From a virus (Duplodnaviria; Heunggongvirae; Uroviricota; Caudoviricetes): a stretch of 33,995 bases of DNA. Within the stretch, counting starts at the first letter, position 1. Every line of letters begins with the position of its first letter. A program made the translations under genes and the position numbers. The stretch spans positions 1 through 33,995 of IMG/VR virus record IMGVR_UViG_2778261513_000009; one strand, 5' to 3'. This document shows positions 1,635 to 33,677 of the stretch, one piece after another. Below the pieces are notes generated by a model. The model made no database searches and was not told where the DNA came from. It was given only the letters and a program-made list of their open reading frames with translations.

Positions 1635-1856
1635 TCACAGCCAGGGCATTTGATGCTGACCGGTCATCGTCGGGTGCGGTGGAGCCGGTACGACTTCCCC
1701 CGGCGAAACGATGAAACGCTCAACGGTTTCAGTCGTGACAAAAGTACAACTGCAGTTGATGTTTGTGCACTGATGATACCGCTCTTTTGTGGTGTCAGAA
1801 AAATAGCGACTCGTGCGGGCATGGGCGGCGTAATGGCATTTCGGGCAGTGAAACAT
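1635..1856 (-). CDS. ogr: Ogr zinc-finger late transcription activator
   Basis: Translation MFHCPKCHYAAHARTSRYFSDTTKERYHQCTNINCSCTFVTTETVERFIVSPGEV... shows the Cys4 zinc-finger pattern and close similarity to P2 Ogr. The ORF track begins at an upstream GTG; ATG at 1856 is taken as the start. Confidence 0.9.
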   Translation of the reverse strand: MFHCPKCHYAAHARTSRYFSDTTKERYHQCTNINCSCTFVTTETVERFIVSPGEVVPAPPHPTMTGQHQMPWL

Positions 1857-7057: not shown

Positions 7058-8251
7058 TTAGCTGTTGACCGAGTCCGACAGATTCGCCAGATAGGTATCG
7101 GTGATGCGCTGGCGCAGGGTCAGGTTCTCCAGCGGCGGGACGGGGGTGTAGTCATAATCGATATACAGTTTCCCGACTTTCAGGGTCGCCGTCTCGTTTG
7201 ACTCCGGGTCATACCAACAGGAGCCGTCAACGATATACCCGTTATTTTTCAGCTCGCGGAATTTGGCATTGATACCCGATACGATGTCGCGAATGAGGGT
7301 CGGGGTAATGGGTTTATCCATCGCCCAGGCATGCGCCTCCGCCATTGTGTCGGCCAGTACCTGCGCGGTGCGGGTGTAGTTCTCATACAGGAAAAGCGGG
7401 TCATCTGAGCAGGTGCGGTTTCCCCAAAACTTGAAACCGTCATTGCGGATAAGCGTCGTAACACCGGCTTTGTTAAGCAGGTTGGCGTCGGTCGCGGGCT
7501 CCTGCAAATCCCACGACACCGAGGCGCTGACGCCGGTGACGCCATTCACGCCGACGTTTGACAGGGTTTTATGCCAGCCGACGGTCTGGTCAATTCTGGC
7601 ACGCAGACCGAGCGCGCGCGCCGTTGCCCAGGCTGTCGCAGTCTCATTCGCCGTTGTGTCCCATGCCAGAAAATCCGGGAAGATAACCATCAGCTCACGC
7701 TGGCTGAAATTCTCGCGGTAGTTAATGGCATCAGAAATGGTTTTGCAGCCCCACGCACTGACATAACCAAAGGCGCGCAGGCTCTGGCAGGTGGACGCGA
7801 GCGCCGTCGCCACTTCCTGTGAGTCCAGCCCCGGCACGCCGAGAATGCGTGGTTTCACGCCGGTGACGGTCTGCGCCGTCAGCAGCGCTTTCAGGCCGGT
7901 GTATTTGCCATTTTCGTCAGTCGTGCCGATGATGTTGGAAATGGTTTGTTTCTTCCCGGCCTCCGGATCATCCGGGTCTTCTGCGCCTTCGGCCACGCGC
8001 ACGGCCACAATGACCGGTTTGCACTGGTCAGCGATGGCCTGCAGGGATGTCGACAGCGTCCCCTTTTTGCCCGCCTTACCGATAGCGCTTTGCACGTTGG
8101 TAATGAGCACCGGCTCATTGAGGGGAAATGTCTTTTCGTCAGCATCGCTGGCCGTGCAGACCATGCCGATGATGGCCGTTGAGACGGTGGAAATGGTGCG
8201 CACGCCATCGTTAATCTCGATGACCTCTACGCCATGATGAAAATCACTCAT
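7058..8251 (-). CDS. FI: Contractile tail sheath protein FI
   Basis: 397-aa ORF (MSDFHHGVEVIEINDGVRTISTVSTAIIGMV...) matching P2 gpFI in size and position. Confidence 0.9.
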   Translation of the reverse strand: MSDFHHGVEVIEINDGVRTISTVSTAIIGMVCTASDADEKTFPLNEPVLITNVQSAIGKAGKKGTLSTSLQAIADQCKPVIVAVRVAEGAEDPDDPEAGKKQTISNIIGTTDENGKYTGLKALLTAQTVTGVKPRILGVPGLDSQEVATALASTCQSLRAFGYVSAWGCKTISDAINYRENFSQRELMVIFPDFLAWDTTANETATAWATARALGLRARIDQTVGWHKTLSNVGVNGVTGVSASVSWDLQEPATDANLLNKAGVTTLIRNDGFKFWGNRTCSDDPLFLYENYTRTAQVLADTMAEAHAWAMDKPITPTLIRDIVSGINAKFRELKNNGYIVDGSCWYDPESNETATLKVGKLYIDYDYTPVPPLENLTLRQRITDTYLANLSDSVNS

Positions 8252-8387
8252 CCGTTTAACTCCGTGGTTAAGGGTGAGTGTATTTTCTGTTGTGTGGTGG
8301 TGGCGGGCTATTTGTCAGGGTTGGATACGGTCTGACACAACCGGGGAGCAGGAAAGCGCGGGCAACCGCCCGCCTGAGTGATACCGG

Positions 8388-8966
8388 TTATGCGGGCAGT
8401 TCCGGCCATGTGATATCGGGTGCATCTTCGGGTTTGACCCTGTTGAGCATGACCCGATATTTTTTCCATTCATTAAGCGCGGTCGCTTCGTCTTCCGTTG
8501 CCATATCCAGATCAACGGCATCCTGCAGGGGGGCAATAGCCGATGTTGCAATCATCAGCAGGTTTGCTTTTTCCTGCGCCGCCAGCCCCTGACGAAATGT
8601 TTTTTCCGCTTCGGCATCGTGGATCCACTTAGCGCCATCCCATTTTACATACTCCCCGTCAGGAGCAACCGACACAACGTTATCAGGCAGAGCGCCCAGC
8701 TTTTCAATAACAACAGGCTGGCCTGTCTCGATGTCGTAGACAGTTGTCCCGCGATGGTCTTCAGTCTGCGACCACTTGCTGGCCTGTGCATCAAAAACAG
8801 CCACAAAACCCGCCGTCACTTTTGGGGGCGCAATATCGGTGCTGTATGCAGGCAGGCCTGTATTAGCCGGAATAAAGCCATCCCCTTTACCGATAAACTC
8901 ATTCGTGGCCGATGACAGGTTGTAAATCGTAATAACCCGGTTGGTGCTGGTCATTTTAAAAGCCAT
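8388..8966 (-). CDS. G: Tail fibre assembly protein G
   Basis: 192-aa ORF directly after the tail fibre gene; its ATG overlaps the H stop (TAATGG). Confidence 0.8.
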   Translation of the reverse strand: MAFKMTSTNRVITIYNLSSATNEFIGKGDGFIPANTGLPAYSTDIAPPKVTAGFVAVFDAQASKWSQTEDHRGTTVYDIETGQPVVIEKLGALPDNVVSVAPDGEYVKWDGAKWIHDAEAEKTFRQGLAAQEKANLLMIATSAIAPLQDAVDLDMATEDEATALNEWKKYRVMLNRVKPEDAPDITWPELPA

Positions 8967-10654
8967 TATGCAAGCCTCACTAAATAATTAAATGCGGTGT
9001 TTTTTACGGTGTTTTCTGCATTGCCCTCAGCATTGACCGTAATTGCGTGGTTGTGTGCGCCCAAAACAACATTATGGGTGTGAGCGCCGATGCCAACTGT
9101 ATGAGTATGAGCACCGATACCGACTGTATGGGCATGGTTGCCAGAGGTGCCTGTATTCAGGGTTCCCGTACCTGCCAATGCCTGGTTCCGGTCGCCATCT
9201 TTAACAGTCGTTGACGTTGGGGCTGTGTATGTATGAGCATGCGCCCCTGTGGTATTCGTTGTTTTTGTACCGTAGTCAAATGAACTGGTTGTTTTTGTCC
9301 CGTAATCAAATGCAGTCGCGGCCTTCGTACCGAGATCTGTATTTGCAGATGATGCTGAGTGCCCATGCGACTTAATACCATCCTGCTCCAGTGATAAAAC
9401 TGCACGACCGCTGGCTGGTTTGCCTTTGATGGTCTGACCGCGCATATCAGGAATCACCCCGGAGGGATACGCCACTGCAAGCAACGGATAGACTGATTTA
9501 TCAAAAGCCTGTCCCTGCATTAATCCATACCCTGCCGGGGGTGTATCAGACGGCCACGGAATCGGCGCCCCAACAGGAAAAGCATCATCGGGTGTCCACA
9601 TCGTCCACCGCTGCGTGGAATACTTGCTGCGTGAGTAGCTTCGTGAACTGCCATACACGCGATAAACCTGAGTCACTCCGGCACTTTTAAGTACCATCAG
9701 GGAGCCCGCTCTATTCTCCGGGTAATTCAGTGCTGCACTGGTATTCGCATTCATTGTCTGGTGATACAGACCCGGCGTCTGGTAATTATCCAGATTCTGG
9801 TCAGCACCAAGCTCGGTACACTGACCGTCAAAAATATCCTGTGAAGTGACGCTGATATCGCCCGTCAGCGGGTGTCCGTTAACGTTTCGCTCAGACGGGA
9901 CGCGACCATTCGCATTATCATTCACCGCCTTAACCGCTTTCGGCGTTGCGGCGAGCGCCTCAGACGTGCTGTCGGTGGCACTGCTGAGTTTCACCAGACC
10001 TTTCTGCGCTGTGCTCGCGTCCTGAGCCGTATATTTACCACTGGCAAGGTCATACACCGCCTTAACCGCTTTCGGCGTCGCTGCGAGACTCTCAGACGTG
10101 CTGTCGGTCGCATTGCTGAGTTGTACAAAGCCTTTTTCTTTCAGCGTGGCGTCAGGATGCCTGCGGGACTGCTCATGCTCTGCCAGTTTGTCGTCGACAT
10201 AATCCTGCGTCGCCATGACCGTTGTCGCGTCAATGGACAGCTCCACCGAGGCGATACTGCTGACAATAATCACCATGCGACAGGTCTGCGCACGCCCCGA
10301 GCCCTCCGCCAGCTCCGGCTTGTAGCTCTCCGCCATATTGGCAACGGCTATCAGCGTGCCTGCGTCATCATACAGACCCAGCTCACGCATCCAGAAGCCG
10401 CCCACCTCGGGAGGAATGACCAGCTCAGCCACGATATAGTTTTTATTTTTGTTGTCCTGGCTGATTTTATTCAGCGCATGACGCCAGACTTCATTGATGA
10501 GTTTTACCTGCCCGACGTTCGGCTCCGGCAGTGCGTCGCCGCCATCACCGACGGCCATCGCGGTAAGGTTCACTTTTTTACCACCCGGCACCGTCGCCGC
10601 CGCCAGTTTTGCAGCTCCGGCAGTGGTAATGATTGTTTTAAATTTCGTGCTCAT
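8966..10654 (-). CDS. H: Tail fibre protein H
   Basis: 562-aa ORF with a conserved N-terminus ([24 protein letters not shown]...), internal duplicated '[18 protein letters not shown]' segments and a C-terminal His-rich repeat ([30 protein letters not shown]). Confidence 0.85.
9923..9990. repeat. 68-bp imperfect direct repeat inside gene H, copy 1 (copy 2 at 10055-10122, offset 132 bp)
   Basis: caccgccttaaccgctttcggcg...cagacgtgctgtcggt...gctgagtt recurs with a few mismatches; encodes the duplicated [18 protein letters not shown] peptide. Confidence 0.7.
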
Positions 10655-13090: not shown

Positions 13091-13305
13091 AGATAAAGGA
13101 TGCCGAGGGGCAGAGAATCCAGCAACAAAATGGAGTTTGATGAGAGCTAAGACAACATACCCTAATACTATCTATCATTGATGAAAGCACATCAGAGCAA
13201 TGATGCTATTGTGAGCTAGCGCGAATTATCAACTTCCGCTTTTGCGGTAGGAATGCATATGTTTAAAATGTTATATTCAAGAAAAAATTGACTGAGAGAT
13301 CTTTA

Positions 13306-14502
13306 ATGTTTGATTCGATAGTATTAAAACGCTCAATAGATGGCCCAACATTGACGATTGGCGAAATTGCTGAAGCATTAATTTTCTATCAAAATGTTCA
13401 CGTTGTAATGGACACATCAACCCTCCTCGGCATCATTAGAGAAATAGGGAGCCATAATGTAATCAAGTTATTAACACTCCCTGGTATAAAAACTACTTTC
13501 ATTGAGGAGTTCGTAGGTGTGTATGGCCAAGACACGTACCATGGAAAAGAGTACGCATTAATAAGCGCTTACTTTGCCGGAAGTGAAACAGATGGGGAAT
13601 TAAAAAGCTGGAAAAAAAGATTGGCAAACATGATTTCACGCCAAGGTTATAGCAAAGTTGAATCTGACAATTTTGTCGAAAGATTCAAAAGATGCGTAAC
13701 GTTAAAGAAACTCTCCAGCGACTACTTCATTAAAGGCGGTATAATATCAGCTGCACGTAGTGATTTAAATGATAGTGATTTCGTTTCATCGGCCGCACTC
13801 ATTATCTTGGAAGATTTATTACCTAAAGAGGAAATTACGAGCGACCTCTTTTATAAAACATTCCCAACCAGAGAAACCTTCCAAATCTCGACAAATATTA
13901 ATTTTGAAAAAATAAACAACTATAATGCTAATAAATTCTCTGACATTGGTGAAACAACCCCTGCAAGCATTGCAGCGGGAATCCTTAGCGCTTCATACGG
14001 ACTTATTTTAGCTGCTCACTACGGTGGCGATTTCTATACATCAGCGACAGACTCAAAGATCATTCAGTTCAAAAATAAACAACTACTCACCAGAACTAAC
14101 GCAAACCGTAAAGAACTAGAAACCTTCAATGAGGTGATTTTGAAGGATTGCCCAAATATATCCTCAATCATAAATAAAAAAGAACGTTCCTTTGAGGAAT
14201 TTTTAGAGTTACTTTCAAAAGCTAATAAATTTAAAAACTGGCTAAAAAACAAATCCCCAGATAAAAATCTTCTATCGAACTATGTTGATGATATTTCGAA
14301 AACAGGATGGATGGGAAGTAGTTATGGGAAGGCCTTACGTTACATTGTAAGTACTGGTGCAGGAATCATTAGCCCAGCGAGCGGACTTGCCATATCCGCA
14401 CTAGATACATTTTTATTAGACAGACTTAGCGCAGGCTGGAAACCAAATCAATTCGTCACATCAAAACTAAAACCTTTTGTTGATGTTAATGATGAATTTT
14501 AA
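13306..14502 (+). CDS. Hypothetical 398-aa protein of unknown function (AT-rich cargo gene between V and S, opposite strand)
   Basis: Long uninterrupted ORF in a markedly AT-rich segment (GC-rich backbone on both sides), antisense to the late operon and followed by its own hairpin terminator. I recognise no family. The ORF track starts at TTG 13288; ATG 13306 is the likely start. Confidence 0.6.
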   Translation: MFDSIVLKRSIDGPTLTIGEIAEALIFYQNVHVVMDTSTLLGIIREIGSHNVIKLLTLPGIKTTFIEEFVGVYGQDTYHGKEYALISAYFAGSETDGELKSWKKRLANMISRQGYSKVESDNFVERFKRCVTLKKLSSDYFIKGGIISAARSDLNDSDFVSSAALIILEDLLPKEEITSDLFYKTFPTRETFQISTNINFEKINNYNANKFSDIGETTPASIAAGILSASYGLILAAHYGGDFYTSATDSKIIQFKNKQLLTRTNANRKELETFNEVILKDCPNISSIINKKERSFEEFLELLSKANKFKNWLKNKSPDKNLLSNYVDDISKTGWMGSSYGKALRYIVSTGAGIISPASGLAISALDTFLLDRLSAGWKPNQFVTSKLKPFVDVNDEF

Positions 14503-14507
14503 ATGCT

Positions 14508-14533
14508 CCTAGAGGCTCAATTGCGCCTCTAGG
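14508..14533. terminator. Hairpin (cctagagg / cctctagg) between the convergent cargo gene and S
   Basis: Perfect 8-bp inverted repeat with a 10-nt loop, 6 nt after the cargo gene stop. Confidence 0.5.
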
Positions 14534-14562
14534 TACTTCTTAACACTCACATCACTTTAAAA

Positions 14563-15009: not shown

Positions 15010-15469
15010 CCCATTTACTCACCAGCTCACCATTGATATAGAGTTCGGTCGGACGGGGGACTGGCTCTGGCAGTGGCGGCTCCGGGGCATAGCTGACGTG
15101 TAGCGCGCCGTTTTCTTCCCGGACAAGAGCGCGCTCGGTCAGTTGCAGGCTGATACTGATATCAACATTATCCCCGTCATTTAAATCCATCTGGAATCGA
15201 TAGCCCTTTTTACGCCCCTCATCGAGCGTGCAGATATCCGGCTGATTTTCTCGCAGCCATGCAGCCACCGGCACAAAAATCAGGTCGGGGTCGCCTACAA
15301 AATCACACACGATCACATTCAGCGTGTATTTCTTTTCATGGGACAGCGAAGCAGCGAGACGCGCATCGATATTCCCCTCATCGGCAAAGATACGCATCAT
15401 CTCGGGGTTATTCAGAAGCTGCGGGACGGCGTCATTCAGCGCTTTGCGCAGGCTTTTCATTTTCTGCAT
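15002..15469 (-). CDS. R: Tail completion protein R
   Basis: C-terminus ...PVPRPTELYINGELVSKWDE closely resembles P2 gpR; start taken at ATG 15469 (MQKMKSLRKAL...) rather than the upstream ORF start. Confidence 0.85.
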   Translation of the reverse strand: MQKMKSLRKALNDAVPQLLNNPEMMRIFADEGNIDARLAASLSHEKKYTLNVIVCDFVGDPDLIFVPVAAWLRENQPDICTLDEGRKKGYRFQMDLNDGDNVDISISLQLTERALVREENGALHVSYAPEPPLPEPVPRPTELYINGELVSKWDE

Positions 15470-15722
15470 CGATTTTATCCTGACAGTCTTTGATGGTTTC
15501 GACCTTAATCGCACAGGCGGTGAGCGCGTGCTCAAGCCTGCGAATATCTACACTCAAATCACCGTTATTGACGGGGTCGCTTCCCGGCATCGGGCAGAGG
15601 CTCACCTTCGGGCAGGCGTTGTAAACAACGGGCAGCGGAGGCGCAGCCTGTTCGGATGTGCAACCGGCGCACAGCATCAGGCAGCTTATCGCTGTACCAG
15701 CGGCGTAACGTCTCGTTTTCAT
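15432..15722 (-). CDS. lysC: LysC / Rz1-like outer-membrane spanin lipoprotein (starts inside lysB in another frame)
   Basis: 96-aa ORF with lipobox-like LMLCAGC; begins within lysB and runs past its stop, the P2 lysB/lysC arrangement. Confidence 0.6.
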   Translation of the reverse strand: MKTRRYAAGTAISCLMLCAGCTSEQAAPPLPVVYNACPKVSLCPMPGSDPVNNGDLSVDIRRLEHALTACAIKVETIKDCQDKIDAENEKPAQSAE

Positions 15723-15990
15723 TCATCAGCCTCGTTATGGTTTCTTCGCGCCTTGCCGCCTGCTCACCGGCAACGGCCAGCTCATCACCGAGCCTGACCT
15801 GCGCATCTTCATTCGCCCTGGCGATTCGCCGCGATACGGCAAGCTGATTTTTCAGCATGCCAATCGTCATCTTTTGCTCACTTGCGACGCGGTTCGCTTT
15901 CTCAAATGACCGGGATAAGTTCGCGTTATCGTGGCGCAGCCACAGCACCGCGGCGAGCAACCCGGCCAGCAGAATTATCAGCACTTTCAT
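15565..15990 (-). CDS. lysB: LysB / Rz-like inner-membrane spanin
   Basis: 141-aa ORF with N-terminal TM segment (MKVLIILLAGLLAAVLWL) and coiled-coil remainder, directly after the endolysin gene. Confidence 0.75.
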   Translation of the reverse strand: MKVLIILLAGLLAAVLWLRHDNANLSRSFEKANRVASEQKMTIGMLKNQLAVSRRIARANEDAQVRLGDELAVAGEQAARREETITRLMNENETLRRWYSDKLPDAVRRLHIRTGCASAARCLQRLPEGEPLPDAGKRPRQ

Positions 15991-16496
15991 TGCATCCCCT
16001 TTACGCAGTAAGCCCGTTCCCGCGCGCGGCGGTTCTCCAGCCCTTTATTTTTTGTACCATTGACATACACCCAGCGGGTGAGCTGGTCGCACGCCTGCCA
16101 CCACTGGTGACGTTTGATAAACGAGACCAGCGTCGACCGGCAGGCCGCACCGGCTCCGACGTTAAACGCAAAACTGACCAGCGAGTCATAGACGCGCGGT
16201 GGCATATCCACCGGCACACAGACCGCGAGCCGTTGCTCGACGTTGAGCACATCGGCAACGAGATTCTCCGCCGCCTGTCGCTCTGTGATATCCCCTTTCG
16301 GGACCACCCCGGCAGTGTGGCCGATACCTGACGTCCACACTCCCGCGTTGCACTGGTAAGGTGTCAGGCGACATCCTTCGAGGTCGGCAATCAGCGCCAG
16401 CCCCTCGGGCGAGGTGTTAAGCAGACGAAAGTCAGGCATCAGTGCCGCCAGCGCCAGCACGGCGGCCACACTGCAGCGTTTAATGATTGAGCTCAC
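15987..16496 (-). CDS. K: Endolysin K (phage lysozyme)
   Basis: 169-aa ORF in the lysis cassette between holin and spanins; size as P2 gpK. Confidence 0.85.
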   Translation of the reverse strand: MSSIIKRCSVAAVLALAALMPDFRLLNTSPEGLALIADLEGCRLTPYQCNAGVWTSGIGHTAGVVPKGDITERQAAENLVADVLNVEQRLAVCVPVDMPPRVYDSLVSFAFNVGAGAACRSTLVSFIKRHQWWQACDQLTRWVYVNGTKNKGLENRRARERAYCVKGMQ

Positions 16497-16701
16497 GGGC
16501 AGCCCCCTTATCGAGTCCGAGTGAGGTCAGGTAGCGGTAGGTTTTGCGCTTAAACCAGTAATTCGTCAGCGCGGTAAAAATGGCGCAGGCACTCCCCACA
16601 TAGAGCGCCATCTTTTCAGGGGACATCGCCCCGAAATACGCCAGCCCCACGGCCAGCCAGTAAGCGATAAACGTCGTGATTTTTTCCACACTCAGTCCCA
16701 T
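16480..16701 (-). CDS. Putative holin (Y-like), 73 aa with two predicted TM helices
   Basis: Two hydrophobic stretches (ITTFIAYWLAVGLAYFGA and ALYVGSACAIFTALTNYWF) and a charged C-terminus; located between X and K. Shorter than P2 Y, so the assignment is positional. Confidence 0.55.
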   Translation of the reverse strand: MGLSVEKITTFIAYWLAVGLAYFGAMSPEKMALYVGSACAIFTALTNYWFKRKTYRYLTSLGLDKGAARELNH

Positions 16702-17500: not shown

Positions 17501-18256
17501 TTAACCTGCGGCTTTTGCCGCTTTCGGGGGACGCCCGCGCCGTGCCGCCGGTTTAGCGGCAGGTTTGCGCGTGCGCGGTTTATTCTGTTTTGGTGCGGGT
17601 TCTGCTTTGGGTTTCAGCGCGCGCTCGAGCTGTTCAATATCCTTTTTCACACCGACAGTTCGCTCTAACTGGATCGCACGCTGCAGGTGCGCCAGCGCAT
17701 CAGTCAGGCGGCCAGCCTCACGCAGCACGTAGCCGGTAATTTTGTGCAGCTTCGCGCGCACGATATCCGGCATGTCTGCCCGTTCGGTCAGTGCAATGGT
17801 GTCGAGCAGGAGCAGCAGCCCGACAGGCTGTTTCGCATCGAGCAGGCGCTGCGCTGACAGGGCGACTTCTTCGGCCAGCAGATACGGCGTGGTGCGCCGG
17901 TGGCCGCCGGTCGGCATGGTCAGGCCATAGGTCATCGCATAGCGGGCAATCTCCAGCGCACCGGCGATATCATCCGCATCGAGACGCCACAGCATGACGG
18001 TCATGACAATGTCATCCTGCGCCCCTTTTCCGGCGCTGAGGACACCCGACACCCACGGCAGATAGAACGGCAGCAGCTCACGCTTTTTGTCTGCCTTGCG
18101 TTCATTGGAGCGGATTTGTTTTAACGTGCGACAGTCTGCGGCCAGCTTGACGAGCATCTGCTCATAGGCAGTTGCATTGCGCAGCGGAGCAGCAGCCCGC
18201 CGCGCAGTTTCAGAGGCCGAGACCCGCATCATGTGACGCGCTGCGGGACTCGTCAT
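17501..18256 (-). CDS. M: Terminase small (endonuclease) subunit M
   Basis: 251-aa ORF with a basic C-terminal tail; follows N as in P2. Confidence 0.85.
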   Translation of the reverse strand: MTSPAARHMMRVSASETARRAAAPLRNATAYEQMLVKLAADCRTLKQIRSNERKADKKRELLPFYLPWVSGVLSAGKGAQDDIVMTVMLWRLDADDIAGALEIARYAMTYGLTMPTGGHRRTTPYLLAEEVALSAQRLLDAKQPVGLLLLLDTIALTERADMPDIVRAKLHKITGYVLREAGRLTDALAHLQRAIQLERTVGVKKDIEQLERALKPKAEPAPKQNKPRTRKPAAKPAARRGRPPKAAKAAG

Positions 18257-23188: not shown

Positions 23189-23253
23189 TTTTCGAAATAA
23201 ACATCTCAACATTATATTCAGCCCTGTAACTCAAGAACCACATATAATAACGT

Positions 23254-23278
23254 CACAGCCCACTTTATCGGGGCTGTG
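23254..23278. terminator. Bidirectional hairpin (cacagccc / gggctgtg) between convergent Q and the 370-aa cargo gene
   Basis: 8-bp perfect inverted repeat with a 9-nt loop and A/T-rich flanks. Confidence 0.5.
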
Positions 23279-23283
23279 ATAAT

Positions 23284-24396
23284 TTAACCAACCCTTGCTT
23301 TTTTATATGGACCACAACTCCAACTAAAGAAATTCTTACCTAACTTATACCATTTATCAGAAAGCACTGGTGTTAGGTGAGGATTATATTTTTTTAAACT
23401 TCCCTTTTGTATATATTTCAATGTATTGCTGAGCAAATTCTCTCCAAAACCATCATAACTTACACAAGCAGTGTTGCAGCTACAGCGTTTTGAGTCGATA
23501 TACTCACAATCATATTTTATATCAAGCTTCTTTAATATCGGACGCCAATATGCACCATGTTTTCGATCGAGTTCAAGGGCTGTTTTAAAATCAAAACCTT
23601 TTTTATGGTCAATGTAAAATTTTACTGATTCATCTACGGAGCAAAGATGCTTAAAGAAAATGAGAGATTTTTCTTTTTGTTGAAATTGACTTTGACTTCT
23701 TAATACATCTTCAATTGTCGATAAAGGAACTAGAGATTCTATTTCATGTACATCTAAAATCTCAACGAAACCTGAGCGAGTGATTTGTGAGCCCAAAAAA
23801 TGTGAGCAAGTACCCCCGAATGGGGCTCTAGGATGTTTTTTGTCATTATCCACAATACAAAAAACTATCTCATTATTTTGAATTGCACGCTCGAATACAT
23901 CCTTAGTACTACCCCCACCGCCATTTAGAGCGATAAAACCCATTTCGCAGCGAGATAAGTTAATACCTTCGGCATAATGAGCCGCTATAACTCTAAAAAA
24001 ATCAGAATCCAAAGGATTTTCACATACTATTTTCGTTTTTTGCAATTGTGCCGAGTCATTAAAATACAATGGACCACAAACAAATTTAAAAGATTCACCG
24101 TTCTGAACCCATCTAAATGATTTATCACTAATATTAAAGTCGACAGTTACATAAAATGAGACCTGGTTCAAGATAGCATAGTACTCTGTTAGACCCGACA
24201 AAGCCTCTTGCGCGTAACTTTTTGATGAAAGGCTATAAAGCCCGCTTTGATCATTGATAATAGTTTTAAAAAAAACCCTTGTCCCTATAACCAAGTGTTT
24301 TTGTTCAGCAAATGCCCGAAGTATATTCTCAACCGCTATGGCAAATGAATTATTTAGCACCTGCTCAGGTGTCGCATTTTCGATATGAATCAACAT
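23284..24396 (-). CDS. 370-aa protein with Toprim-like E...DxD core (putative nuclease effector), partner of the upstream ATPase
   Basis: Start codon 2 nt after the ATPase stop. Motifs read by eye: KIVCENPLDSDFF (E126), Gly-rich LNGGGGS, IVFCIVDNDKK (D183/D185) about 57 residues after the Glu, and a Cys-rich C-terminus. The Toprim assignment is unverified. Confidence 0.7.
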   Translation of the reverse strand: MLIHIENATPEQVLNNSFAIAVENILRAFAEQKHLVIGTRVFFKTIINDQSGLYSLSSKSYAQEALSGLTEYYAILNQVSFYVTVDFNISDKSFRWVQNGESFKFVCGPLYFNDSAQLQKTKIVCENPLDSDFFRVIAAHYAEGINLSRCEMGFIALNGGGGSTKDVFERAIQNNEIVFCIVDNDKKHPRAPFGGTCSHFLGSQITRSGFVEILDVHEIESLVPLSTIEDVLRSQSQFQQKEKSLIFFKHLCSVDESVKFYIDHKKGFDFKTALELDRKHGAYWRPILKKLDIKYDCEYIDSKRCSCNTACVSYDGFGENLLSNTLKYIQKGSLKKYNPHLTPVLSDKWYKLGKNFFSWSCGPYKKARVG

Positions 24397-24398
24397 AA

Positions 24399-25955
24399 CT
24401 ACTTACCAGAGAAAAAGCCAACCGGCCAATTTTGTAGGAAACCATTCTCGTCAAAATAAGATTTCTTAACTATGGTCTGCTGCTTTTCATCTTTTTCAAA
24501 TACCAGTATTGAAATATCATCCTGTGAAAGATTTTCATTTTCCTCAATATATTCACCAAGTGCTTCAATCATGGTCTGGCTATGTGTCTCAAAAATTATC
24601 TTCAAATCCACATTGTTTTCTTTTGCTTTAGTTACTACTTTTGCAAAAATACTTGCTAAATTATGTTGATATGACGGATGTAAATGCAATTCTGGCTGCT
24701 CAATGATAAATGTTATAGGTTTTCTAACCGTGGTAGCACGACGTTCTGTCTCAAGCCAAATGGCTGTAACTATCGGCAAAACCTGAGAGTAACCAAACCC
24801 CATATCACTAACATTATAGTTCTCACTATTTTCACCGGTATTTATTAAAATTGCAAAGTGAGAGCCACTTTGTTCAACCTTAATAATGAAATCAAAATTT
24901 AACTTTGTCCAATCTTCAAATTTTGATTTATCAGCCGGCCTTAATGAATTCAAAAGCATTGCAAGATTGGAACCAGTATGATCTATCTCATTAACCTGTA
25001 AATCTTGAAAGCGATAAAATCTTTCTGATGTAGCACGCAGTGGAGCTATGTACTTTACATTTCTGAATGAATCTGACAAGGATGTATTTATTATATCTAT
25101 AAGATTATTAATATTCCATCCAATTATAAATGGATATAACTCATTCATTATTTCATCATGTTGAAGTTCAAAGTTTCTACTAAAAACTTTTTGTTCCTTG
25201 AATAGAAAAGCAACTAATTTACTGGCGTACGCTTTGGGTATAAAGCCAATTCTTTTGAATGCCTCTGTCACTTGATTTATATCAGATTTAGTATGGAAAT
25301 ATTTCTTTATATATTTCGCTGCTGAATCAATAAATGACAATTCTAATGCCCTGTCATGCCTAGAATGTCTCAAATAGAATGATGTGCTTGGAGGAGGACT
25401 ATCTTCCTTACCCTTCAAAATTAGATTGGGTATGAACTGCCCAAGATTTTTAGCTATTATCCCATCACGCTCTATTGTTTTATCATCTGATTCAATGAGT
25501 AACTTAACATTACTGTTCTCATCCATTGAAATAAATATTGTTAAATCAGCCAATATAAGCTTAATCGTTTTTGTTTTTGTTTTTTTATCTTTAGAGTAAA
25601 CAGTCAACTCTGCTTCAACATCTGTTGGTTGCTTTGCTAAATCAGTAAAACGATAATATGTATATCTTTGTGAAACCTCTGGCGGAATTGAGAGTGAAAA
25701 ACTGAACGTAATTTCTTTTTTTTCAGAGTTTCGGGAAAGTACATCTGTAAAATCGCCAAAATCCACATATCGCCCATACCATAGTATTGGACCAGTAGTA
25801 TTTTCTTCTACAGATTGACGAAGTAAAGGAAATGTACGCAATAGGGAACTTTTACCACTGCTGTTCTTACCAACAAATACTGTAATTGGTTTTAAATCAA
25901 TAAAAGTTTTGTTGACAAAGCTCCTGAAGTTTTGAAGACCTATACCCTTAATCAT
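24399..25955 (-). CDS. ABC-type (AAA_15/AAA_21-like, OLD/AriA-like) P-loop ATPase, 518 aa
   Basis: Walker A VFVGKNSSGKSSLL; Walker B-like FIIEQPELHLHP; H-loop-like IFETHSQ. Start taken at ATG 25955 (MIKGIGLQNFRSF), which has GGAG 8 nt upstream; the ORF track extends to 26042 across the GC/AT junction. Confidence 0.8.
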   Translation of the reverse strand: MIKGIGLQNFRSFVNKTFIDLKPITVFVGKNSSGKSSLLRTFPLLRQSVEENTTGPILWYGRYVDFGDFTDVLSRNSEKKEITFSFSLSIPPEVSQRYTYYRFTDLAKQPTDVEAELTVYSKDKKTKTKTIKLILADLTIFISMDENSNVKLLIESDDKTIERDGIIAKNLGQFIPNLILKGKEDSPPPSTSFYLRHSRHDRALELSFIDSAAKYIKKYFHTKSDINQVTEAFKRIGFIPKAYASKLVAFLFKEQKVFSRNFELQHDEIMNELYPFIIGWNINNLIDIINTSLSDSFRNVKYIAPLRATSERFYRFQDLQVNEIDHTGSNLAMLLNSLRPADKSKFEDWTKLNFDFIIKVEQSGSHFAILINTGENSENYNVSDMGFGYSQVLPIVTAIWLETERRATTVRKPITFIIEQPELHLHPSYQHNLASIFAKVVTKAKENNVDLKIIFETHSQTMIEALGEYIEENENLSQDDISILVFEKDEKQQTIVKKSYFDENGFLQNWPVGFFSGK

Positions 25956-26327
25956 TCCTAGCTCCATTAGTTCAATAAAATCAATCGATTTTGAGACAAT
26001 CTTAATATCTTTGACAGGCGCGCGCAATGCTATCCCCGCCACGCCTGCCCGCTTAACGGGTCGCTTTTAATGCAGTTGCATGACCACACAGGATCCGCGC
26101 CAGCTCTGGCGGCGCGCGGCCAGAACGGGCAACCCTGACGCATGCAAAGCAATGCACCTGTTGCATGCGCGGCTAAAAAACCGGGAAATTGTGGGAAAAT
26201 GGCATAATAAAACCGGCTTTAATCGTGCCGGTTGAGGTTGGTCTCTACGGGACAGGCTAACGCCTCGCGGGGCTCGTTGTTCAACCCCGCAGGCACTGAA
26301 AACAAGTTTCAGCACCGGCGGCGTTTG

Positions 26328-27033: not shown

Positions 27034-29319
27034 TTACTCCTCTTGCATTGAGAATCCCGGCCACTCATCAGCAGCCGCGTATTTGAATTTTTTATCGCCA
27101 TAAATCACCGTTGCCCCACGCGCCAGCGCTTCAAGCTCCCACCGTTCCGGGGTAATGCTCTCCTGAGCCAAATCGAAACGAATTTTCGCTATGCGATCCC
27201 TTTCTGGTTTTGTCATCCTGGCTGATGGCGCTTGCTCGCTCGTTTTGAGTGGAGCATGGCTTCTTTGCTGGCGATTTTTGCGAGGGATACCAGCTTTTAA
27301 CGCGCCGTTAAGCACCTTCATGACGTCTGGCTCATTCCAGCCGATAACCCCGCGCTCAATCAGATTTAACACCGCTGCGGCTTGCTCAGACGGTGTGGGT
27401 GTCATAACTGGAGCATCACCGCCGGTGAGCTTTCCACAGTTATTGACAGGACTCCGAGGCGCGGCAGAGCCGCTTTTTAAGGTCAAAGGCTCAACGGCCA
27501 AAATCTTTGGAACAATGCGCCATTCGGCTGTACGGGTTACATGTATGCGACTCGCCCCGAGGTGAGGGGCATAAATGCCGACCACTCTCTCGATATCTTC
27601 CTCATATTCGTTGACCTCATCAGTCACCTTACGGGCGACCCTAACGGCCTGCGCATCACGCGGCATGTTTGCCCCACCCTGTGCGATGATATACAGGTTA
27701 AATTCACCTTCATCAGCAGCAGCCCGGACAGCCTCGACCCGGTCGTCAAACTCACTGGCGATACTCACGCCGCGCGGCAGCTTGCGCAGTTCGCGGTAAG
27801 CGCCCATTGTCGGTAGGCCAATTGGTTTAAACTGCGGGATGCGCCATGTAGACGCCCATGCAGTTACGGCTGCGGCGGTATCTTTCAGAGGCTTTCCGGT
27901 GTCGTGGTCGATCTGGCCGTCGAGTGCGTAGCCGTCGATATTTTTGGCAATGTATTTAGCGATATAACCCGCCGCACCGCCCTGATTAAGATGACGTGAC
28001 TCAAAGCGCTGTTTTGCCGCTCCCTTTTCGTGCCCGTCCTCTTTGAGAGCATAACGACGCATAATTTCGTTAATAGCTTTACGCTGACCGGGTTTGCAAA
28101 ACAGCATCATGTGCCAGTGTGGCGTCCCGTCGTGGTGCGGTTCGACAACACGCATCCCGTAAACCTCTAAATCGTTATCTTTGAAAGCGGTGCGTATCAG
28201 GCTCCAGATTCGGCACAGATAGCGCTGGCCGTCTTTGGGGGTAAATGCGGTTTCATTCCAGCCATGATTGAGCTACACAGTTTTGTTTTCACCTTTGCCG
28301 ACCTGTCGGGTCGGGTGATACTTCGATGGCGTGGTCAGCGTGATAAACATCCCCACGTCACCAACGCAGGCCGCGTAGCGTTCAATCCCGGCGATAGTGT
28401 TCATCAGTTCCATACGCCGTATTTCAGGGTTAGAAATACTCCCCATTACCTTACTGATGAGGTCGATACGTTCGCCGGTGACTTTGTTTTCCAGCTCGCA
28501 GGATTTCAGGTATTCGAGATTAGCCAGGCGGCGCGCGTGCACATCGCGGATCGCCATTTTGCTTGCGTAAGGTGAGCGGTCTTTGTTGACCTCGCCAGCC
28601 GCAATAAGCAGCGCCTCGCGCCAGCGCATCCGCTGCGCCTTGAGCTGGCTGACCCACCACTCATCTTTTATCAGACGGGAAATAGCAGAAAATGCCATGC
28701 GGATCGTCATCTGACCCTTACGGTATTTTTTCCAGTACATCGGGGTGAAGTTAAAAGCGCGAGCAATACCGGCCACCTGACCGTATAAATGCGCCTGCGC
28801 CTCATCGGTGAATAAAGTGTCTTTCCCGCCGTGCGCCTCCTCCCATGCGTCGCTTAACTCCTCGTATTTGCTCCAGAGTTGAGAAGCAATTCTGGCCGCA
28901 AACTTCTTAAGCTCTTTGTCATTCATATCCGGCAGGCGCACATACTGGTCACGCTCGGACAAAAAACCAATCGAGGCGGATTCATTCATTCCGCACAGCT
29001 CATTAACACGCTCAAGACGCGGCAGCAACTTGCGCTCAAACGTGTTTTTGAGGAAATACAGCCCACCCAAGGGGCTCTTTGTGCGGCGGATGAAGTTATA
29101 ACGCGAGGTAAACAGCGTTTGCAGGAAAAACGGCAGGCGATCAATCCGGTTTAAAACACCTTGCACCTGACGGAGTTCGGCACGTGTAAGGGGTCTGTCG
29201 CGGCCAACTGCCTCGCGGGATTTATTCCACGGATAAGCACCGACGAAATTATCACCGGTGCTTTTTGGTAGTGGCGGAGGTGGCGAGGGGGCAACGCGCC
29301 CCCGAGTTTCAACGGCCAT
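27034..29319 (-). pseudogene. A: Replication initiation protein A (rolling-circle HUH endonuclease) interrupted by an in-frame amber codon at 28273-28275
   Basis: ORFs 28273-29397 and 27034-28155 are in the same frame; the 117 nt between them has no stop other than TAG at 28273-28275. The joined product would be about 761 aa from ATG 29319, carrying the HUH motif (HWHMMLF) and a tandem-tyrosine motif (YIAKYIAK). Confidence 0.8.
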
Positions 29320-29584
29320 CTGCAGCAAACGCAATCTGACATTGCTGACCAATGCGCTCGACCTGCTCGCCAATGTCCGCAAAACTAGCCGCCTCACCGG
29401 TCAGAATGCCATGTAATATCAGACCAGATACGAGTCTGGAAACTGTTGGATAATAGCCAATTACACCGAGCCACTCTTTACCGGCGCTCTTTCCTGATTT
29501 TGCGGTTTTCTTTTCCTGCAAAATAAATTGAAACTGGTCACTAGTGACGACGAAACGGTCGCCCACCTCAATATAAATTGACAT
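29309..29584 (-). CDS. Hypothetical early-operon protein (orf82/83-like position)
   Basis: 91-aa ORF immediately upstream of A, overlapping its start by 11 nt. Confidence 0.55.
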   Translation of the reverse strand: MSIYIEVGDRFVVTSDQFQFILQEKKTAKSGKSAGKEWLGVIGYYPTVSRLVSGLILHGILTGEAASFADIGEQVERIGQQCQIAFAADGR

Positions 29585-30937: not shown

Positions 30938-31129
30938 GTGAACAATCAAAAACTTAATGAATTAATTACCACTCTTGAACAAGCCGTAGCATTAATTGAG
31001 TCTCTACCAACCCCAATGGGTGACGTGGAAAAATCGAATCAAGTCGATGTATTGACAATTAAGTTAAGAGAATTAGCTCACTCAAAAAAACCAAATCATC
31101 TTCAAGGGTTTATTGATATAAACGACTAA
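30938..31129 (+). CDS. Small 63-aa predicted helical protein, convergent with the 139-aa gene (AT-rich cargo)
   Basis: GTG start with AAGAGG 6 nt upstream; AT-rich; stop overlaps the stop of the convergent 139-aa gene. Confidence 0.45.
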   Translation: MNNQKLNELITTLEQAVALIESLPTPMGDVEKSNQVDVLTIKLRELAHSKKPNHLQGFIDIND

Positions 31130-31545
31130 GCGTCTAATTCATGTGGTGCGGCTTTTTTGGGACGATGCGACCGCACCATCACATTAAAAATGTCATCCCA
31201 ATCATCTTTGCTCATTAGCGTAATACCCAGCTCCCGAGCCTTTTCTCTTACACAGCGCGCCAGATATAAACGATTATCAATACTTATCCCTATAGCCCTT
31301 TCTTTCATGCGGCCGTAGTTATCAGAAAGAAGCTGTATCAAGTCAAGGCGTAGTATTTCAACTGAGCCATCAGTGCTGCGAAAAACTAAATCATCACCAT
31401 CAATAAACACTGGTTCACTTTTGAGCTCTTCGCTACTCACCCACTTACGCAGACTTCGTGGAACAACAAGACTATTTGAAGGTGTCATTTCGTCTAATTC
31501 ACCACTGAATAAAGCCACTTTTATGGTTTTCAACTGATGTTCCAT
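31126..31545 (-). CDS. 139-aa hypothetical protein directly downstream of cox (AT-rich cargo)
   Basis: ATG 31545 with AAGGGGG ribosome-binding site; about 38% GC against a roughly 55% backbone; N-terminal segment LVVPRSLRKWV is faintly AbrB/SpoVT-like. Confidence 0.6.
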   Translation of the reverse strand: MEHQLKTIKVALFSGELDEMTPSNSLVVPRSLRKWVSSEELKSEPVFIDGDDLVFRSTDGSVEILRLDLIQLLSDNYGRMKERAIGISIDNRLYLARCVREKARELGITLMSKDDWDDIFNVMVRSHRPKKAAPHELDA

Positions 31546-31904: not shown

Positions 31905-31941
31905 TTAATTGCTCTTAATGGGGTTTAATTGCTCTTAATGG
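31905..31941. promoter_or_regulatory. Two 17-bp direct repeats ttaattgctcttaatgg spaced 20 bp apart (putative operator at the early promoter)
   Basis: Perfect copies at 31905-31921 and 31925-31941 in the cox-C divergent region; P2 C repressor is known to bind direct repeats flanking the early promoter. Confidence 0.55.
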
Positions 31942-31971
31942 TGATTCACCCATCGGAAAGATAAATCTACG

Positions 31972-33551: not shown

Positions 33552-33568
33552 CATTGACCACATCGATA
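33552..33568. repeat. 17-bp direct repeat cattgaccacatcgata, copy 2 (outside prophage on the yegR side)
   Basis: Identical to 1582-1598. Confidence 0.6.
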
Positions 33569-33677
33569 GAATCTCCCTTCATAGCACGATGCCTTTCACG
33601 TAACGGCATCGTGCTCGCACAGGTTCCGGCTAAGCACAACCAGAACGCGCATGTTTGACGCTTACCAAAAAATATTC

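Follow-up and report, generated by a model that had tools for sequence, protein, structure and literature searches.

The question raised by this locus is what is contained in the short interval between the late genes G and FI of a P2-like prophage. The TO-region, the Z-region and the orf30 region are loci of horizontally acquired genes in P2-like phages, as described in PMC3091744, and in P2 (AF063097) the Z-region takes up 2,377 nt from G to FI and carries fun(Z) on the opposite strand. In the stretch of DNA analysed here (33,995 nt, referred to as the window), the corresponding interval measures 136 nt. A preliminary description, made from the sequence, had called this variable site empty and had also noted the absence of lysA and the presence of cargo at other sites. 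In our reading, to which we give a probability of about 0.93, positions 8252-8387 would represent an ordinary unoccupied Z-region lying at the boundary of two late operons, with a predicted terminator and a predicted Ogr-dependent promoter as in phage 186.

The window contains a complete P2-like (Peduoviridae) prophage of approximately 32 kb, and a tblastn search with all P2 proteins gave the canonical gene order. On the minus strand, the genes are arranged in the order ogr, D, U, T, E, FII, FI, G, H, I, J, W, V, cargo, S, R, lysC and lysB, continuing with an endolysin gene, a holin gene, X, L, M, N and O; next come P and Q, which are plus-strand genes. Beyond Q are cargo, cos, small ORFs, A, ORFs similar to orf83/81/80, B, orf78, further cargo, cox, C and int. 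The prophage is situated just downstream of the host sRNA gene cyaR (1445-1530; full-length match to Rfam CyaR, 100 bits), and a U32 peptidase gene occupies 1-1362 in the flank. A 20-nt direct repeat, identical at 19 of 20 positions, was found at 1582-1601 and 33552-33571 and is likely the att core.

Based on the gene coordinates, the spacer between FI and G is exactly 136 nt (8252-8387), in agreement with the length given earlier. Both neighbours lie on the minus strand and are strongly supported: FI (7058-8251), the tail sheath gene, matched PHROG 23 at 4.7e-150 and its product shares 79% identity with P2 gpFI; G (8388-8966), encoding a tail fibre assembly protein, matched PHROG 105 at 3.4e-82 and Pfam Caudo_TAP and shares 39% identity with P2 G over residues 92-174. 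An occupied Z-region usually has an AT-rich protein gene between G and pF; the spacer contains no such gene, and tblastn with the P2 proteins detected no similarity to fun(Z) anywhere in the window. The GC content of the spacer is 0.56, similar to that of the core genes, and that of the cargo islands ranges from 0.30 to 0.42. The spacer aligned end to end with the 186 region containing t45, the B-activator site and pJ, a spacer of 128 nt, and also aligned with P2 pF. The ORF map, the tblastn search and these alignments point to an unoccupied Z-region with regulatory elements only; the site is free of cargo, as had been proposed, and its 136 nt are filled with a predicted terminator, promoter and ribosome-binding site. 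Synteny with P2 and 186, the comparison suggested in the preliminary description, likewise gave an unoccupied Z-region and no lysA.

Reading along the minus strand from G, a GC-rich hairpin (GCGGGC-GGTT-GCCCGC) at 8358-8373 starts 14 nt past the G stop codon, has a dG of -11.7 kcal/mol and aligns with the annotated t45 of 186; it is the putative terminator of the V-W-J-I-H-G operon. The tail following it, GCTTTCC (8351-8357), is weak, with just three consecutive T in GCTTTCCTG, and the hairpin was missed by a generic terminator scan because this T-run is short; most relatives have a stronger T-run. The fold z-score of the 56-nt stretch containing the hairpin was only -1.6. Termination at such a weak-tailed hairpin may be partial.

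Four late promoters of P2 depend on Ogr, and their consensus is TGT-N12-ACA (PMC3931495). Searching for the strict consensus was non-discriminating, with 18 exact matches on the two strands of the window, and alignment to the annotated features of 186 and P2 was used instead. A predicted Ogr/B activator site, GTTGTGTCAGACCGTATCCA, was thereby located at 8322-8341 (minus strand), with TGT-N12-CCA at 8322-8339. It matches the B-protein site of 186 (14091-14110) column for column and falls within the annotated activator site of P2 pF (17555-17583). With its CCA right half, the site has one mismatch to TGT-N12-ACA, and the same deviation is found in P2 pF, P2 pO/pP and 186 pJ. GAAAAT at 8282-8287 (minus strand) would be the -10 element of a late promoter equivalent to pF/pJ; GA(A/C)AAT or CAAAAT is present at the same position in 37/37 spacers. 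No -35 match was found, and a sigma-70 consensus scan gave no complete two-hexamer promoter on the minus strand; this is expected of an activator-dependent promoter, for which, as for the weak-tailed hairpin, the generic scan was uninformative.

The predicted transcription start of the FI-FII-E-T-U-D operon (8274-8276, minus strand) was assigned by homology to the P2 start at 17626-17628 and the 186 pJ initiation point at 14159. Activator sites of this class, which form a partial dyad, are expected to be centred about 55 nt upstream of the start; the one in the window has its centre approximately 56 nt away from position 8274 of the predicted start. The sequence GGAG at 8260-8263 (minus strand), 8 nt ahead of the ATG, is the probable ribosome-binding site of FI, and ACGGAGTT is nearly invariant across the spacers compared. 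Relative to the FI ATG, the predicted promoter site as a whole occupies positions 23-90 nt upstream, and the genes that follow it, FI, FII, E, T, U and D, are in the same order as in P2.

A cognate activator of the Ogr/Delta family is encoded by the prophage itself: ogr (1638-1856, minus strand) is intact, and its product, a zinc-finger late activator with 66% identity to P2 Ogr and a match to Pfam Ogr_Delta at 6.7e-20, is presumed to act at 8322-8341. By homology, transcription of V-W-J-I-H-G would end at the GC hairpin with its short T tail; the prophage's own Ogr would bind the TGT-N12-CCA site and recruit RNA polymerase to a promoter having a -10 element and no -35 element; and transcription of FI-FII-E-T-U-D would start approximately 23-25 nt before the FI ATG, with the GGAG ribosome-binding site following.

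The spacer was compared with those of P2, 186 and 34 relatives (n = 37, including the window). A GC hairpin was observed in 35 of the 37, a T-rich tail in 34, TGT-N12-NCA in 31 and a -10-like element in all; the distance of each feature to the FI ATG is fixed, and the hairpin sequences can be sorted into at least three types that are unrelated. Fixed spacing combined with unrelated hairpin sequences speaks for conserved function rather than mere sequence inheritance. From this homology we infer that the spacer holds a terminator and an Ogr-dependent promoter that would be active in this prophage.

The orf45-J region of 186 (U32222) lies at the same place, between the genes for tail fibre assembly and tail sheath, and has the same element order in 128 nt as the window has in 136 nt. 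This spacer is annotated with t45 (14058-14081), the B-protein site, pJ and the initiation point; the 20-nt B site is GTTGTGCCAGACATCATCCA in 186 compared with GTTGTGTCAGACCGTATCCA in the window, and the -10 element, start site and ribosome-binding site also align. The pF region of P2, counted from the conserved hairpin up to the ATG of FI, shows approximately 80% identity to the window, and the activator site, -10 element and start context are common to both. P2 differs from the window in having a separate annotated V-operon terminator (15639-15666) and approximately 2.25 kb of extra AT-rich DNA, with fun(Z), inserted after the G stop and ahead of the conserved hairpin. Since this hairpin persists just upstream of pF in P2, the fun(Z) insert site is equivalent to positions 8374-8387 of the window.

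An FI-based survey covered 80 loci, each species being represented by a single genome; a G-like gene on the same strand was located in 58, so that the proportions are approximate. Among these 58, the spacer was 122-152 nt in 35, 161-450 nt in 18 and more than 450 nt in 3, and an invertase was present in 2; the 122-152-nt spacer is the commonest state among relatives. Of all 80 loci, 5 had a resolvase-type invertase directly before FI, including the 2 just counted. No fun(Z) homologue was found at any of the 80 FI loci, and in complete E. coli genomes fun(Z) was detected in 13/5,426 as opposed to 1,717/5,426 for P2-type FI. The short spacer is probably the basal state, with P2 as the exception.

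Three other explanations of the spacer were weighed. The earlier statement that the gap has no ORF holds for genes, none being conserved, but not for mechanically called ORFs, which are present at 8274-8381 (plus strand, 35 aa from a GTG), 8234-8335 (plus strand, 33 aa) and 8308-8469 (minus strand, 53 aa). One of the two plus-strand frames, of 35 and 33 codons, might encode a small unannotated protein and represent minimal Z-region cargo, but the 35-codon antisense frame carries a stop in a Citrobacter youngae prophage (L002), the closest relative identified, which has a nearly identical spacer and an FI that is 99% identical; translated matches in other relatives represent orthologous spacer DNA only and are mostly interrupted by stops; and 10 of 36 scanned spacers have no ORF of at least 20 codons. 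These ORFs moreover lie antisense to the conserved columns, passing through hairpin, activator site and -10 element. A small gene with homologues within 8252-8387, named in the preliminary description as the finding that would speak against it, was looked for and not found; a small gene in the spacer was rejected upon comparison across 250 fetched loci, the ORFs being unconserved and interrupted by stops in relatives, and we consider its probability close to nil. An extra regulatory or RNA element in addition to terminator and promoter, such as an inverted-repeat site or an antisense small RNA, is very unlikely. A perfect inverted repeat, TGTCAG-N13-CTGACA, is present at 8313-8337, with 6-bp arms that are perfect in the window, and P2, 186 and many relatives keep the motif GACAAATAGCC, located downstream of the site for Ogr. 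However, the left arm of the repeat overlaps the Ogr half-site and is unconserved in P2 and most relatives; no match to Rfam was obtained within the spacer even at E <= 1; and a sigma-70-like promoter is absent from both strands of the spacer, the two plus-strand scan matches lying at 8434-8463, inside G. A structured RNA in the spacer was also rejected, as Rfam at the gathering threshold found only CyaR, in the host flank.

It is also unlikely, though less so than a gene or an extra element, that the short spacer is a secondary deletion scar, left in a lineage that once had cargo in the Z-region (and lysA) and then lost it. The G-FI site is variable, as the 18 and 3 longer spacers among the 58 placed loci illustrate; resolvase-type invertases, an acyltransferase and small ORFs occupy it elsewhere; and 19 of 78 close relatives have a lysA-like gene. 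Against a scar, distant lineages (186, Enterobacter, Citrobacter, Kosakonia and Rouxiella) show the 122-152-nt form with its elements ordered and spaced alike, and the spacer contains no foreign or AT-rich remnant. The pattern fits a basal state that receives inserts, as in P2, where the conserved hairpin persists downstream of the insert. The reading of an ordinary unoccupied Z-region is preferred, and since it is P2, the reference carrying fun(Z) and lysA, that is out of the ordinary, genes that are "missing" by comparison with P2 should not be read as losses. The analysis fixes a predicted functional map of the G-FI junction, consisting of terminator, Ogr site, late promoter and ribosome-binding site, and has little import beyond annotation; the finding at this junction adds nothing beyond the published variable loci of P2-like phages.

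In the neighbouring gene G, a sub-threshold match to Rfam IS009 was observed at 8425-8623 (minus strand; 55 bits compared with a gathering score of 117, E = 1e-11, full model). It was the only Rfam match at E <= 1, lies wholly within the conserved 3' half of G and may reflect conservation of the coding sequence rather than an RNA.

The lysis cassette (15435-16701, minus strand) has no lysA, as judged from PHROG and Pfam matches and reading of the sequence. It consists of a gene for a predicted class II holin (16480-16701; 73 aa, with two hydrophobic stretches and sub-threshold matches to HP1/P21 holins), a gene for a predicted SAR endolysin of family GH24 (15987-16496; Pfam Phage_lysozyme at 4.3e-37), the Rz-like lysB (15565-15990; 59% identity to P2 lysB) and the Rz1-like lysC (15435-15722; 64% identity to P2 lysC), which is embedded as in P2; all are on the minus strand. 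The endolysin has a SAR-like N-terminus, CSVAAVLALAALM, and an E-x8-C-x5-T motif read from the sequence as E-GCRLTPYQ-C-NAGVW-T, and close homologues of the two genes are annotated as "SAR endolysin" and "holin class II". As stated earlier, no lysA-sized gene precedes lysB; the endolysin stop and the lysB start overlap by 4 nt (ATGA at 15987-15990). Searching the window by tblastn with P2 Y, K and LysA gave nothing better than E = 2, and with P2 LysA and the antiholin of Escherichia phage Midge nothing better than E = 0.65. P2 has Y, K and lysA, and the window has no homologue of any of them. The preliminary description was right in placing lysB directly after the gene that it called "K", but the names do not stand, since "Y" and "K" are non-orthologous replacements without similarity to P2 Y/K.

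In 186, the endolysin gene is likewise followed directly by a LysB homologue without lysA, the same layout as in the window; the endolysin P and the holin of 186 are K/Y homologues of P2 according to the record notes, whereas the window has a predicted GH24 SAR endolysin and class II holin. Cassettes of the Eganvirus type, represented by Yersinia phage vB_YpM_MDG94-186 and Klebsiella phage RCIP0057, encode SAR endolysins 82-86% identical to that of the window and have the same order (X, HP1-family holin, SAR endolysin, Rz, Rz1, R, S); the endolysin stop overlaps the Rz start and no antiholin gene is present, as in the window. The endolysins of Escherichia phage Midge and Erwinia phage EtG are 87-89% identical to that of the window, and in these two isolated phages a lysA-like putative antiholin gene lies between endolysin and i-spanin.

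Seventy-eight close relatives (R at least 88% identical) could be scored, with both endolysin and lysB placeable; all have this endolysin type, and a lysA-like gene was absent from 59 and present in the 19 mentioned above. For this lineage the lysA-like antiholin gene counts as an optional addition, and its absence is a common polymorphism of the 186-like lysis module. With this distribution, the absence of lysA is not a matter of hotspot occupancy; the preliminary description was correct about the absence itself but not in treating it as a sign of uneven cargo occupancy. A tie between the lack of lysA and the SAR-endolysin cassette was rejected, because Midge, EtG and the 19 relatives combine this endolysin with a lysA-like gene.

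Cargo at V-S, at cox-B and beside Q was confirmed, and none of it has a P2 counterpart. The S-V gap (13091-14562), at the position of P2 orf30, is 1,472 nt long and occupied, in contrast to 186, where this junction is empty (69 nt). It contains an AT-rich gene (GC 0.37) on the opposite strand (13306-14502, plus strand) for a 398-aa protein with no match in Pfam, PHROG or PADLOC. The 82 homologue clusters of this protein include none with a functional name, the named ones all being "hypothetical protein"; it belongs to an uncharacterised gammaproteobacterial family and has a confident predicted structure with no convincing fold match in PDB. Of the 71 relatives compared, 66 had an insert in the gap (771-3,913 nt, median 1,740) and only 5 had it empty (74 nt); the 398-aa protein was present in none of them. 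The S-V gap is a very busy hotspot in this lineage (loci L086-L165). The cargo between cox and orf78/B is an ORF of 139 aa (31126-31545, minus strand) without a P2 counterpart and without a match in Pfam, PHROG or PADLOC.

The third cargo site (23284-26042, minus strand) has a GC content of 0.30-0.39, the figure for the two-gene cassette being 0.30-0.36, and comprises a gene for a 370-aa protein (23284-24396), which had no match in any library searched, and a gene for an ATPase of 547 aa (24399-26042). The ATPase is of the AAA_15/AAA_21/DUF3696 type (Pfam AAA_15 at 1.6e-26), is AriA-like and matched PADLOC NsnB at 7e-55 and PDC-M55A at 3.5e-46. A comparison with 80 relatives collected by way of Q turned up no copy of either protein. 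The pair is a candidate two-gene defence system, as suggested by these matches.

A cos core with 16/19 matches to that of P2 and the conserved right-end flank of P2 was identified at 26027-26045 (minus strand). Because the cos core lies there, 2,838 nt from the Q stop, the ATPase and 370-aa genes are located between cos and Q, in the stretch 23189-26056; "beside Q" was literally right, and the slot is not that of old/tin in P2. This cargo lies at the left end of the virion DNA, and old/tin of P2 are on the A side of cos. The A-to-cos interval, corresponding to the old/tin slot, is approximately 980 nt in the window and near the minimum seen. Among 79 relatives with a detectable cos, the distance from Q to cos was 162-189 nt (mostly approximately 175) in 56; another 8 had 386-581 nt, and 15 (approximately 19%) had at least 1 kb. 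The last group indicates that the gpA-gpQ hotspot has two sub-slots flanking cos.

Defence hotspots have been placed at gpA-gpQ, in the integrase-to-primase region and "within the tail genes" in PMC9122126 and PMC13586616. The cargo of the window falls in the described variable loci of P2-like phages (TO-region or gpA-gpQ, Z-region, orf30 and int-to-A); a distinction between the Q side and the A side of cos in the gpA-gpQ hotspot was not found stated in the passages of PMC3091744, PMC9122126 and PMC13586616 consulted. It is possible, although doubtful, that the lineage uses the S-V gap and the cos-Q slot in place of the Z-region and that the 398-aa protein is a new single-gene anti-phage defence. 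For mining cargo or defence genes in this lineage, the S-V gap and the two flanks of cos would be better targets than the Z-region.

Several minor observations were made in other parts of the prophage. The replication initiator gene A (27034-29397, minus strand) is interrupted in frame by an amber codon, TAG, at 28273-28275, where P2 gpA has Gln (KTVQLNHGW). It splits A into ORFs of 374 and 373 aa, the remainder being 75% identical to P2 A without frameshifts; either the prophage may be replication-defective or the amber codon may be a sequencing error. The tail fibre module is mosaic, H (8966-10654) matching P2 H at residues 1-261 only (79%) and G matching P2 G in the C-terminal half only (39%), and the C. 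youngae prophage, otherwise the closest, differs in its H/G pair. Within H, an imperfect direct repeat of 99 nt was noted, with copies at 9905-10003 and 10037-10135. Finally, two tandem 20-nt direct repeats (TTAATTGCTCTTAATGGGGT and a copy ending in GGTGA) are present at 31905-31944 between cox and C, the same position as that of the direct-repeat operators O1 and O2 of the P2 C repressor.
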